Positions 29,025 to 34,123 of a DNA stretch of 64,000 nucleotides are shown here, in pieces. The translations under genes and the position numbers were made by a program. Position 1 is the first letter of the stretch. The number at the start of each line of letters is the position of its first letter. The DNA lies in the NCBI GenBank assembly GCA_020632515.1, contig JACKFK010000004.1, positions 64,068 to 128,067 of the forward strand. The letters are read 5' to 3'. A model generated the notes under the pieces. That model did no database searches, had not been told where the DNA came from, and saw only the letters and a list, made by a program, of their open reading frames with translations. The DNA comes from Candidatus Omnitrophota bacterium. Lineage in GTDB: Bacteria > Omnitrophota > Gorgyraeia > Zapsychrales > Zapsychraceae.

Positions 29025-29588
29025 ATGATATTAATGATTGATAACTATGATTCATTTACCTATAACCTTGTTCAGTATTTTGGAGAACTGGGGGCGGATT
29101 TAAGAGTGTTTCGTAATGACGCTTTGACGATTGAGGATATTAGAGAAAGTAATCCAGAGAAAATTGTTATTTCGCCCGGGCCTGGTCGGCCGGAAAGCGC
29201 AGGGATTTCCGTTGAAATTATTAAAGAATTTAAAGGGAAGATTCCTATTTTTGGAGTTTGTTTAGGGCATCAATGCATCGGGTATGCGCATGGTGCTGAA
29301 ATTGTTCAAGCAAAAAAATTAATGCACGGGAAAACATCGCAAATTCGACATAATGGTCAGGGGCTTTATAAAGATATTGAGAATCCATTTGAAGCCACAA
29401 GATATCATTCGTTGGTTATCAAACCTGAGACATTATCCGGGGAATTTGAAATCACAGCGCGATCAGACGATGGTGAGATTATGGGGATTTGTCATAAGAG
29501 TTTACCGCTTTGGGGTGTGCAGTATCATCCGGAATCTATTTTGACCAAAGCTGGGAAAAAGATTTTAGATAATTTTCTAAAAATGTAA
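29025..29588 (+). CDS. trpG: Anthranilate (or aminodeoxychorismate) synthase glutamine amidotransferase component
   Basis: IDNYDSFTYNL, GVCLGHQ catalytic Cys, and GVQYHPES. Confidence 0.88.
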   Translation: MILMIDNYDSFTYNLVQYFGELGADLRVFRNDALTIEDIRESNPEKIVISPGPGRPESAGISVEIIKEFKGKIPIFGVCLGHQCIGYAHGAEIVQAKKLMHGKTSQIRHNGQGLYKDIENPFEATRYHSLVIKPETLSGEFEITARSDDGEIMGICHKSLPLWGVQYHPESILTKAGKKILDNFLKM

Positions 29589-29639
29589 TATAAACCATAA
29601 ACAAACCTCCGAGGTTTGTTTACGGTTTTAAAGGGTGTT

Positions 29640-31546: not shown

Positions 31547-32176
31547 ATGTTTGAAACAAAAGTAAAAATGTGCGGAATTACAAATCATGAGGATGCGCAA
31601 AAGGCGCTATTTTATGGGGCTTGGGCTGTGGGGTTTGTTTTTTATAAAAAAAGTCCACGCTATGTTTCCCCGAGTAAAGCAAAGAAATTAATAGAAGGGT
31701 TGCCGCCGTTTATAACTCCTGTGGGGTTATTTGTCAACCAAAGTGAGAGAGCTGTTGAGGATATTTGCCGGTTTGCAAATATTTCTGTATTGCAATTTCA
31801 TGGTGATGAAACGCCAGTGTATTGTAAAAGGTTTAAGAAATATAAAGTTATTAAAGCCTTTCGTATTCGGGACGATTTTGATTTTCGTTCGCTTTCCAAA
31901 TATAAAGTGGATGCCTATCTTTTTGATGCCTATCAAGAAAACGCCTTTGGAGGGACTGGAAAAACGTTTCAGTGGAATCTGTTAAAGGGGCAAAAGTTTG
32001 AAAAGCCAGTGATTCTTTCCGGAGGATTGACCCCAGAAAATGTGGCTCAGGCGATTGCGGAAACTTCGCCTTATGCGGTTGATGTTTCGAGTGGAATTGA
32101 GCAGTCACCTGGCATTAAGAGTCCTAAACTGATCCGGGCCTTTATGGAATCTATAAGGGCTTCAGCTGCACAGTAA
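31547..32176 (+). CDS. trpF: Phosphoribosylanthranilate isomerase
   Basis: VKMCGIT, LQFHGDE, GGTGKTF.W and LSGGL motifs. Confidence 0.88.
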   Translation: MFETKVKMCGITNHEDAQKALFYGAWAVGFVFYKKSPRYVSPSKAKKLIEGLPPFITPVGLFVNQSERAVEDICRFANISVLQFHGDETPVYCKRFKKYKVIKAFRIRDDFDFRSLSKYKVDAYLFDAYQENAFGGTGKTFQWNLLKGQKFEKPVILSGGLTPENVAQAIAETSPYAVDVSSGIEQSPGIKSPKLIRAFMESIRASAAQ

Positions 32177-32290
32177 AATCTTGGCTTTTGAGTTTCTTAG
32201 TTAAGGTAATTAGGATTTAAATGTGATCATTTGCTTAATATTTTTTTTGCAACAAATGCTTAACCTGTTTAATTTTAATATATTATAGAT

Positions 32291-32318
32291 TTGCCAATTA
32301 AGTATATTGTGGTATGCT
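32291..32318 (+). promoter_or_regulatory. Sigma-70-type promoter with extended -10 (TTGCCA, 16 nt, TGg-TATGCT) driving the structured RNA
   Basis: -35 at 32291-96, TG at 32310-11 and -10 at 32313-18. The predicted start, near 32325, coincides with the first base of the 12-bp closing helix. Confidence 0.5.
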
Positions 32319-32324
32319 TGAAGT

Positions 32325-32554
32325 AAGCCGATAAAGGTAAACCCGGAGAAATCCGGGGACACAAAACTACAGGCCTAAATTGTCTACGACCGGGAAGGCT
32401 CTTATAAAGAGCAGATAAAGACGATATGTAAGGTCAAGGGGCGATATGGTGGCTGAGTTGCCGAAGACTGGGCGTTCTATAACGTTCAAGACGTATCTTT
32501 ATGAGGGATACGCAGGTAAGGAGGGAGAAATCCTCTCTTTATCGGCTTTTTTTT
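32325..32554 (+). ncRNA. Structured small RNA of unassigned class (~230 nt), with its 5' and 3' ends paired and ending in a U8 tract
   Basis: AAGCCGAUAAAG (32325-36) pairs perfectly with CUUUAUCGGCUU (32537-48), followed by T8. Internal hairpins lie at 32342-57 (GAAA loop), 32398-412, 32450-63, 32472-85 and 32492-512. It has its own promoter and lies in a 470-bp noncoding gap. Confidence 0.5.
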
Positions 32555-32647
32555 CTTAATACTCCACACAAATTTCTTCTAAGTGATCCTCACAAAAATT
32601 GAAATTCTCTAAGCGTCAGAAATAAATTCTGTTATAATGTTGACATT

Positions 32648-32947
32648 ATGTCTGAGCATTTTATCCGTTTCTATAAAAAATTAAATCTTAGTGAAATTAC
32701 ATCGCAATTATTGATTTATGGTGATTTATCGGGCCATTGCGCGCATTGTCAAGCCATGGACATTGGGTTGGACAAAGAAAAATGTCCGCAATGCGGTTGT
32801 GTATTTCATTTTATTGCATTTCGTAATCCAAAATCCCATTTTCCTAAAATGCATAAATTAATCGAAACGCGCAATCTTAAGATTATTGATTATGACGATT
32901 ATAAACACGCAACAGCAGCCTCGAAAGCGCAGGATTTTTTGAAGTAA
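32648..32947 (+). CDS. Small Zn-ribbon protein (CxxC ... CxxC), function unknown
   Basis: HCAHCQ and CPQCGC cysteine pairs. No SD; an extended -10 (TGtTATAAT, 32630-38) sits 10 nt upstream of the ATG. Confidence 0.55.
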   Translation: MSEHFIRFYKKLNLSEITSQLLIYGDLSGHCAHCQAMDIGLDKEKCPQCGCVFHFIAFRNPKSHFPKMHKLIETRNLKIIDYDDYKHATAASKAQDFLK

Positions 32948-32980: not shown

Positions 32981-34123
32981 ATGATTAAAAAAGACCGCCT
33001 TCTTAAACTCACTCAGAAAGTCATTTCTTACAATTCTGAAAATCCTCCGGGTAATGAACTCGCCTTAGCCAAATTTATCGAGAAGGATATGCGCACGTTA
33101 AAGTTGGATGTCAAGATTTATACTTACGCGAAAGATCGTCCTAACATTATTGCCACATTACGAGGAACGCTTCCGCGAAAACAGGCTGCAAAAGAAGCGA
33201 TTCTTTTAACACCGCACTTTGATACGGTTCCTATCGGTCAGGGATGGAAGTATAAACCGTTAGGCGGGCAAATCAGCGGTGGGAAATTATACGGTCGAGG
33301 TTCCACAGATGATAAAGGCAACTTAGCGAGTTGTATGGAAGTCATGCGCAGTCTAGTTGAAGATAAGGTGCGTCTGCGTAAAGATGTGGTTATGGCTGCG
33401 ACCGTGGATGAAGAAACGGGCAGTCATTACGGGATTATTCCATTGTTAGAGAAAAAAATCTTGAAGCCGCGTTTAGCGCTCGTTATGGATTCCACGGAGT
33501 TTGACGCGGTCATTGCGCAAAAAGGTTTGCTTCATGGCCGGATTCAGATTTTTGGTAAAAAGGCGCACGGCGCATATAATTGGCGTGGTGTTAATGCCAT
33601 TGAAAAAGCGGCTCCGGTTATTACGAATTTGATTAATTTGCAGTTTAAATACAAAAAACATCCTTTGCTGCATGGCCCGACGATGAATATTGGCGTGATT
33701 AAAGGTGGGGATAAGGTCAATATGGTTAGTGATTTTTGCGAGTTTGCTTTTGATCATCGGTTTATGCCAGGAATGAATCCGAATGAGATTCTTAAAAAGA
33801 TTAGATCTGCGGTGCGCAAAGTCACAACGAATTTTAAAATTAAGATTGATGATATCCAGATGCCTTATGAGATTAAGAAAGATCACCCTCATGTGAAATT
33901 GTTTTTAAATCTCGCCCGCACAATGAAATGTCCGGCTGTGGCTAAAGGCAGCGAAGGGGCCACGGTTATTACATTTTTTCAAAAACATAAAATTGCTGCT
34001 TTTGCCACTGGGTTTGGCGCTCATGGAACTGCACATACCAATGATGAATACATTTATGTCAAATCTCTTTATTCCGGGACAAAGTTTCTAGAACAATATA
34101 TTAAAGAATACGATCAATTGTAA
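32981..34123 (+). CDS. M20-family metallopeptidase (ArgE/DapE/ACY1 type deacylase)
   Basis: LLTPHFDTVP, GRGSTDDKG and DEETGS metal-ligand motifs, plus a dimerisation-domain insertion. Confidence 0.85.
   Translation: MIKKDRLLKLTQKVISYNSENPPGNELALAKFIEKDMRTLKLDVKIYTYAKDRPNIIATLRGTLPRKQAAKEAILLTPHFDTVPIGQGWKYKPLGGQISGGKLYGRGSTDDKGNLASCMEVMRSLVEDKVRLRKDVVMAATVDEETGSHYGIIPLLEKKILKPRLALVMDSTEFDAVIAQKGLLHGRIQIFGKKAHGAYNWRGVNAIEKAAPVITNLINLQFKYKKHPLLHGPTMNIGVIKGGDKVNMVSDFCEFAFDHRFMPGMNPNEILKKIRSAVRKVTTNFKIKIDDIQMPYEIKKDHPHVKLFLNLARTMKCPAVAKGSEGATVITFFQKHKIAAFATGFGAHGTAHTNDEYIYVKSLYSGTKFLEQYIKEYDQL

Follow-up and report, generated by a model that had tools for sequence, protein, structure and literature searches.

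Background

Class I aptamers for cyclic di-guanosine monophosphate (c-di-GMP-I, or GEMM-I) consist of two hairpins joined by an AAA linker, with a tetraloop receptor in the second hairpin if the loop is GAAA (PMC1950547), and in the Vc2 RNA of Vibrio cholerae the ligand is contacted by residues G20, A47 and C92 (PMC4744006). In Bc1 of the Bacillus cereus group a class I aptamer is followed by a ligand-sensitive first terminator and by a constitutive second one, which masks the response (PMC11218506). The 445-nt merRNA of Bdellovibrio bacteriovorus, which shows massive expression in the attack phase and is conserved only within Bdellovibrio according to its authors, likewise contains a c-di-GMP-I aptamer (PMC3627812). 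Here we analyse an RNA encoded downstream of trpF in a Candidatus Omnitrophota bacterium, within a stretch of 64 kb (positions 64,068 to 128,067 of contig JACKFK010000004.1), to which we refer as the window and whose first nucleotide is position 1 in all coordinates below.

A preliminary description, prepared from the letters of the window alone, had recognized a noncoding structured RNA with its own promoter and intrinsic terminator at this place, the two ends of which pair with each other, and these features prove to be kept in 40 distinct homologues. It had left the class of the RNA unassigned, which no longer holds, as the segment 32327-32466 exceeds the Rfam gathering score for a model of the c-di-GMP-I clan. 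The segment 32325-32554 almost certainly specifies an RNA transcribed from its own sigma-70-type promoter and containing, at 32327-32466, a class I c-di-GMP aptamer of canonical type, the second hairpin of which is enlarged by a structured insertion of 67 nt. This aptamer, which is predicted to bind c-di-GMP, is of a known class and is detectable by a routine Rfam scan; the sensor is ordinary, and the unusual parts are the expression platform and a transcript that may be autonomous. An orphan structured RNA is thus assigned to the c-di-GMP-I class, which occupies a fixed locus in Omnitrophota, a largely uncultured phylum.

A class I c-di-GMP aptamer with an insertion in the second hairpin

Homologues were gathered by way of the protein encoded downstream and by pattern scans of genomes and of metagenomes. 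The resulting comparative set comprises 40 distinct RNAs of the same architecture, those with a named source coming from metagenome-assembled genomes (MAGs) of Omnitrophota. Five contigs that encode the identical 99-aa downstream protein (L001-L005) carry an RNA 100% identical to that of the window and give no comparative signal. Of four contigs reached by synteny, through a pair of genes for a 100-aa protein and an M20 deacylase (L009, L010, L013 and L014), only L014 has the RNA. The loose genome pattern (AAAGGYAAACC...GGGACRCAAAAC) returned at least 119 loci, mostly ordinary GEMM-I RNAs of other phyla, which served as a control set. In the alignment of the 40 sequences 96% of the cells pair and 14 pairs change on both sides; none of 500 shuffles reaches the observed value on four of five measures (2 of 500 do on the fifth), and pairing falls to 32-49% in slid alignment controls. 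The aptamer of the window has the following parts:

32327-32466, plus strand: c-di-GMP-I (GEMM-I) aptamer (Rfam RF03167, 61.5 bits against a gathering score of 59, E 4e-12)
32337-32362, plus strand: helix P1a, with a 2-bp and a 6-bp stem, a 3-nt internal loop and a GAAA tetraloop at 32348-51 (Rfam and homologue alignments)
32363, plus strand: A, the putative equivalent of Vc2 A47 (model alignments; the RF03167 "GGC" consensus has G)
32365-32459, plus strand: helix P1b, with an 11-nt-type tetraloop receptor CCUAAA (32374-79) / UAUGG (32445-49), aligned to consensus CUAA/UAUG
32379-32445, plus strand: distal extension of P1b, the 67-nt insertion (fold and homologue alignment)
32461-32466, plus strand: C32461, the putative equivalent of Vc2 C92, and the P1 3' strand CGAAG (model alignments)

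P1a, the AAA linker and the P1b receptor of the window agree with the published GEMM description (PMC1950547), and the likeness to Vc2 and its family model RF01051 extends from the two stems, 3-nt loop and GAAA tetraloop of P1a through the linker (32363-65, in the context ACAC-AAA-AC), which joins the two aptamer hairpins, to the 11-nt-type receptor in P1b. As the model columns appear to map onto Vc2, G32336, A32363 and C32461 would be the equivalents of G20, A47 and C92; the interhelical C:G pair also has its equivalents, the bulged G32452 in P1b standing at the interhelical-pair position. P1a is fully paired in all 40 sequences, its loop-closing pair showing compensatory changes, and five of ten P1b pairs have changed on both sides among the homologues. 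Unlike RF01051, these RNAs have a covarying insertion in P1b, 67 nt long here and 59-80 nt in the relatives, which is made up of a 7-bp helix, a GACC/GGUC helix, the hairpin 32398-32412 and a conserved purine-rich segment (GAAGGC...GCA..AAGAC); all seven pairs of the extension helix covary. The window contains a single copy of the aptamer.

Rfam reports one model per clan (CL00126), and the lower-scoring clan match of the window, to RF01051, is not displayed. Among 20 relatives submitted to Rfam, nine were reported as RF01051 (60-83 bits, gathering score 35) and 11 as RF03167 (59-68 bits), and the label that separates the two sub-models is not reliable. The closest relative matches RF01051 at all highly conserved consensus positions except for a covarying P1a pair, where C-G is replaced by U-A, and this match covers the equivalents of A47, G20 and C92 as well as the CUAA/UAUG receptor. 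Seven relatives (L136, L158, L176, L181, L186, L197 and L214) have GGGGGC for GGGGAC in the P1a internal loop, with G in place of an A that hardly varies in the Rfam consensus.

Two other identities were considered for this RNA. RF03167 describes the c-di-GMP-I-GGC variant, which might have another ligand; it is the top Rfam model for the window (61.5 against 59 bits) and for 11 of the 20 relatives, and it has the 5' junction CGAnAAAGG and the 3' junction UGCCGAAG in common with the RNA of the window. The name GGC is said to refer, in the work of Weinberg et al. of 2017, to three contact positions. At the sole binding-site position in which the two models differ, however, the G between the hairpins of RF03167 is A32363 here, as in RF01051 (RF03167 consensus ACGC-G-AA against ACAC-A-AA in the window), and A stands in that column in all 40 relatives. 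Furthermore, the RF03167 score is marginal, sister sequences flip to RF01051, and relatives lie only 0-9 bits above the RF03167 threshold as against 25-48 bits above that of RF01051. We regard membership in the variant as very unlikely. The preliminary description had also likened three segments to the core of cobalamin riboswitches and the RNA as a whole to housekeeping RNAs such as those of the 6S and SRP type, on the strength of a resemblance and of the pairing between its ends. None of RF00174 and RF01482 (cobalamin), RF00013 (6S) and RF00169 (SRP) matches at E<=10 in 32150-32700 or at the gathering score in the whole window, and the B12-like segments turn out to be P1a with its GAAA loop and the 3' junction GCCGAAG. 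The noncoding reading also survives a check of the embedded 37-codon open reading frame (ORF; 32446-32559), which is not conserved as judged from the homologues: its ATG is kept in 23 of 40, the stops differ and several come early, and S2, the 3' strand described below, is read in three frames. The chance that the locus is a cobalamin riboswitch, a 6S/SRP-like RNA or a small-protein gene is practically nil.

Predicted limits of the transcript and pairing of its ends

The gap between the end of trpF (32176) and the start of the next ORF (32648) measures 471 bp, in accord with the 470 bp given before, and a promoter scan of this gap finds a sigma-70-like promoter with an extended -10, the very elements that had been read from the sequence (TTGCCA at 32291-96, 16 nt, TGgTATGCT at 32310-18). 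The features of the locus other than the aptamer are as follows:

31547-32176: trpF (Pfam PRAI match)
32291-32296, plus strand: -35 hexamer TTGCCA of the private promoter of the RNA (promoter scan)
32310-32318, plus strand: extended -10 TGgTATGCT of the same promoter, at a 16-nt spacer from the -35 (promoter scan)
32325-32336, plus strand: S1 AAGCCGAUAAAG, comprising the P1 5' strand and junction J1/1a and ending at the putative G20 equivalent, 32336 (Rfam and homologue alignments, repeat search)
32469-32488, plus strand: linker hairpin 1, 8 bp, loop CUAU (in this copy and a few long-linker relatives only)
32492-32512, plus strand: linker hairpin 2, 9 bp, holding the second CUUUAU (minimum-free-energy fold)
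32510-32525, plus strand: S1' GCAGGUAAGGAGGG, a degenerate copy of S1 that pairs with S2
32510-32546, plus strand: local terminator hairpin S1':S2 (-16.3 kcal/mol alone)
32537-32548, plus strand: S2 CUUUAUCGGCUU, the perfect complement of S1, within which lies the stretch CUUUAUCGGC (repeat search, homologues)
32547-32554, plus strand: U8 (T8) tract, predicted intrinsic terminator (sequence and terminator scan)

The -10 of the promoter ends 6 nt 5' of AAGCC. Because a TGnTAnnnT motif ends 5-6 nt before AAGCC across the homologues (before the first base of S1 in 37 of 38), with a TTGnCA-like -35 seen upstream of it, transcription probably starts at about 32325, the first base of the 12-nt strand S1. 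As had been noted, the 5' end AAGCCGATAAAG (32325-36) is complementary at 12 of 12 positions to CTTTATCGGCTT (32537-48), 200 nt away. The 3' strand had been said to run directly into U8; the U run does adjoin it, but its first two residues are the last two bases of the 12-bp helix, and six U remain beyond.

The segment 32322-32560 folds at -78 kcal/mol (z = -4.1), and none of 200 shuffles is as stable. The end-to-end helix and four of the five local hairpins proposed earlier (32342-57, 32398-412, 32472-85 and 32492-512) occur in the minimum-free-energy fold; the fifth, UGGC-N6-GCCG at 32450-63, is not a hairpin, as its bases belong instead to the 3' strands of the aptamer helices P1b and P1. 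The reported repeats are present, CGATATG twice (32422, 32442) and AAGAC three times (32418, 32464, 32488). For S1:S2 (-16.2 kcal/mol) the predicted pair probability is 0.92-1.0 for 11 of the 12 pairs and 0.59 for the outermost A:U. When inverted repeats of the window are required to have an exact seed of 11 nt and to lie within 300 nt, only nine remain, S1/S2 among them.

The inner 10 nt of S1 are identical in all 40 homologues, an invariance partly imposed by the search, as the metagenome pattern fixed CGAUAAAGG and thereby inflated it. S2 is present in 40 of 40 despite a preceding linker that ranges from 7 to 73 nt, and its variants all keep the pairing by G.U wobble, with C to U opposite G or A to G opposite U. 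S1:S2 appears in the minimum-free-energy fold of every homologue, 5-20 kcal/mol below the aptamer-constrained fold, and also in the RNAalifold consensus. In a sister clade (L165, L173, L143 and L213) the helix between the 5' and 3' strands shows compensatory changes from G:C to U:A and from A:U to C:G. The retention of S2, the folds, the wobble variants and the compensation in the sister clade together provide evidence that the S1:S2 pairing is under selection. Among the matches listed for the loose genome pattern there are 117 GEMM-I instances, of which only three have an S1-type complement, all of them members of the family of 40 homologues; none of the remaining 114, from other phyla, has this layout. 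One of these, L086, proved to have an ordinary long P1, and the others stand at shuffle background.

Since S2 pairs with all of S1, that is with the P1 5' strand and J1/1a including the G20 equivalent, S1:S2 and the ligand pocket would be mutually exclusive. The predicted terminator stem joins the 12 nt with which the transcript opens to the 12 nt just ahead of the U-tract. It thereby surrounds the aptamer, would be in direct competition with the ligand pocket and would offer a natural case for the study of long-range strand exchange during transcription. The members of the sister clade are shorter GEMM-I RNAs on metagenome contigs, with the 5' strand (C)AUCCGAUAAAGG. L173, L143 and L213 have a separate local terminator, and the complementary 3' strand overlaps its U-run or lies beyond it. 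The helix could form there only after read-through, which hints that it may have a role beyond termination.

Termination and a proposed ON switch

Based on these observations we propose a termination ON switch that responds to c-di-GMP, a reading that in our judgement is evenly poised between right and wrong. In the absence of c-di-GMP, S1 would be free to pair with S2, giving a 12-bp stem that encloses the aptamer, and the polymerase would terminate. With c-di-GMP bound, S1 would be held in the aptamer, the S1:S2 stem would not form and more polymerases would read on. In the copy of the window S1' (32510-25) can pair with S2 too, and most transcripts would probably end at U8 in either state, at about 225 nt; here the ligand would set which conformer is made and would allow at most modest read-through into the 99-aa and ArgE/DapE genes. 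A ligand-dependent anti-terminator of the local hairpin, formed by S2' (32497-502) with S1', was considered and discarded, as only about six weak pairs are possible.

A terminator-based platform 3' of the aptamer with a predicted ON logic is shared with RF01051, and the logic is that first proposed for GEMM terminators (PMC1950547). In 78 of 322 GEMMs the 5' strand of the terminator is the 3' side of the second hairpin (PMC1950547); here, unlike in those, it is the 5' strand of the aptamer together with J1/1a, and the stem encloses the whole aptamer. The first terminator of Bc1 is a typical rho-independent terminator in the expression platform, for which pairing with the 5' strand of the aptamer is not reported (PMC11218506). 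Consistent with a role in termination, a U-rich run follows S2 directly in 35 of 40 homologues, and in the short-linker relatives L140, L148, L166, L206 and L210 S1:S2 is the only strong stem before it. In nine relatives the RNA passes straight into rsmE, and neither a further promoter nor a further terminator was detected in between; these would fit a classical leader. In the rsmE-linked L041, L141, L151, L156, L167 and L192 the U-run after S2 is at the same time the 5' arm of a long perfect hairpin with an A-rich 3' arm and a loop AGAA or similar, whose sequence varies between relatives while its pairing is fully kept; one or two more conserved hairpins precede the rsmE ATG in these relatives.

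Several points weigh against the ON switch, and a number of them speak at the same time for a stand-alone small RNA derived from a riboswitch, which, like merRNA, would always terminate and exert no control over the downstream genes. The local hairpin 32510-46 (-16.3 kcal/mol), with U8 directly 3' of it, is as stable as S1:S2 (-16.2 kcal/mol) and still forms when the aptamer state is imposed on the fold, and termination in this copy may therefore be independent of the ligand. A second canonical, strong and apparently unregulated terminator follows within about 100 nt after S2 in 20 of 37 relatives; five of these lack a U-run at S2 and so have this terminator alone. The aptamer and S2 are nevertheless intact in these lineages. 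The downstream 99-aa gene has an extended -10 of its own, 9 nt before its ATG; such a promoter and a leaderless or near-leaderless placement are found in the window and at least 10 relatives, even in L014. Furthermore, trpF lies upstream in 11 members, and as gene order is kept on both sides the downstream association is no proof of regulation; within the family no pair among the inner 10 bp of S1:S2 has changed in both partners, an invariance due in part to the search pattern; and binding, start site and termination are all predictions drawn from sequence. To these the stand-alone reading adds the conserved private promoter and terminator, the selection that still acts on the aptamer and S2 in the insulated lineages, and the single copy in the 64-kb window at a fixed housekeeping locus. 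In such an RNA c-di-GMP would toggle the released molecule between the S1:S2 panhandle and the ligand-bound aptamer, which could buffer c-di-GMP, alter RNA stability or expose or hide a trans-acting segment. Precedents are merRNA, a discrete transcript which has a c-di-GMP-I aptamer and its own promoter and no clearly regulated ORF (PMC3627812), a likeness predicted here from sequence, and Bc1, where the second terminator masks the ligand response (PMC11218506); tandem intrinsic terminators after the class I aptamer occur as in Bc1 in 15 relatives, although the copy of the window has no second one. However, a 5' regulatory configuration is the rule among GEMM instances (297 of 309; PMC1950547), nine relatives run straight into rsmE as described above, a conserved set of downstream genes and a pocket-competing S2 set these RNAs apart from merRNA, and a strand that competes with the RNA's own binding pocket is not expected in a sponge. 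We entertain the stand-alone reading only tentatively, as a minority view.

In a fuller form, which we hold as a possibility at the same tentative level, the locus would in most lineages, including this one, be a free-standing gene for a c-di-GMP-responsive small RNA, in which the 12-bp panhandle dismantles the pocket and c-di-GMP reopens it, and the ligand would control conformation, the length isoform (first or second terminator), stability or trans activity. If so, merRNA would be joined by a second case, of far wider conservation, in which a c-di-GMP aptamer works within a small RNA and not in an mRNA leader, and c-di-GMP would be tied to housekeeping loci (trp, rsmE, ArgE/DapE) rather than to motility or adhesion genes. 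It is improbable that the RNA is a dormant riboswitch, the relic of a former rsmE leader with no regulatory output in this genome. Such a history might be read from L014 and L218, where the order is RNA, rsmE and 100-aa gene (followed by an M20 deacylase in L014), together with the lack of rsmE at this place in the window; the local terminator may render the switch insensitive to its ligand, and conserved c-di-GMP-I riboswitches with no measurable response are on record (PMC11218506). Nevertheless, P1a, P1b, S2 and the nucleotides of the aptamer core have been preserved intact, both in the window and over 40 diverged lineages with compensatory changes, which argues for continuing selection and not for decay.

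Downstream genes and genomic context

The genes that follow the RNA in the window, with the promoter of the first, are these:

32630-32638, plus strand: extended -10 TGTTATAAT of the 99-aa gene, ending 9 nt before the ATG
32648-32947, plus strand: gene for a 99-aa Cys4 protein of an uncharacterised family, the first downstream gene
32981-34123, plus strand: gene for an ArgE/DapE-family deacylase (TIGR01910, 236 bits), conserved alongside the 99-aa gene

In each of the 40 members the RNA is followed, on its own strand, by a gene drawn from a limited number of recurring ones. In at least 15 of them the first ORF encodes a protein of the family of about 100 aa to which the 99-aa protein belongs, mostly with a gene for an ArgE/DapE deacylase of about 380 aa after it, and in nine the first ORF is rsmE. 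These housekeeping neighbours (trp, rsmE, ArgE/DapE) differ from the motility, pili and signalling genes associated with RF01051. The family (window 32648-32947, P0001-P0028) has four invariant cysteines (CxxC...CxxC) and a conserved LLIYGDLS, its source-named members are all from Candidatus Omnitrophica MAGs, and its gene is almost always followed by one for an ArgE/DapE-family deacylase. The 99-aa protein belongs to no Pfam or NCBIfam family and has no significant sequence match in the PDB, and its AlphaFold2 model (pLDDT 82.8) has no Foldseek match in the PDB at E<=0.001. An mRNA of its own, leaderless or nearly so, is implied for the 99-aa gene by the position of the extended -10, which ends 9 nt from the ATG. 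At least 10 homologues have an extended -10 (TGnTATAAT) whose first base lies 15-19 nt upstream of the ATG of the 100-aa gene, and L014 keeps it though rsmE intervenes between the RNA and this gene. The 100-aa gene has no Shine-Dalgarno sequence; in the window about 19 of 45 long ORFs have even a loose motif of this kind.

In L138, L190, L223 and L169 the first gene after the RNA and its terminator encodes a Cys-rich protein of about 92-110 aa (CxxCGACCG) that lies outside the 100-aa family; L138, L190 and L223 have the 100-aa gene further on, at about +470 to +630 nt, and in L169 it was not detected. In a relative that lacks the RNA (L010/L011/L012, 1-3931) the 100-aa gene stands directly after genes for a histidine kinase, a receiver-GGDEF protein and a receiver-PAS-GAF-HD-GYP protein; genes of c-di-GMP turnover thus occupy the position of the riboswitch, and trpB and trpA lie a few genes downstream. 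Among the ORFs of the window of at least 200 aa there are no GGDEF or HD-GYP motifs, and EAL-type matches amount to short ExLxR strings that we judged spurious. GC skew is positive in every 4-kb bin of the window (0.14-0.26, at 35-40% GC); as nearly all long ORFs are on the plus strand, co-orientation of the RNA with its neighbours is expected by default. Upstream, the junction between trpG (ending at 29588) and trpD (starting at 29616) carries an 18-nt inverted repeat, AAACCATAAACAAACCTC / GAGGTTTGTTTACGGTTT, at 29592-29628, which is 94% complementary and has a 1-nt loop.

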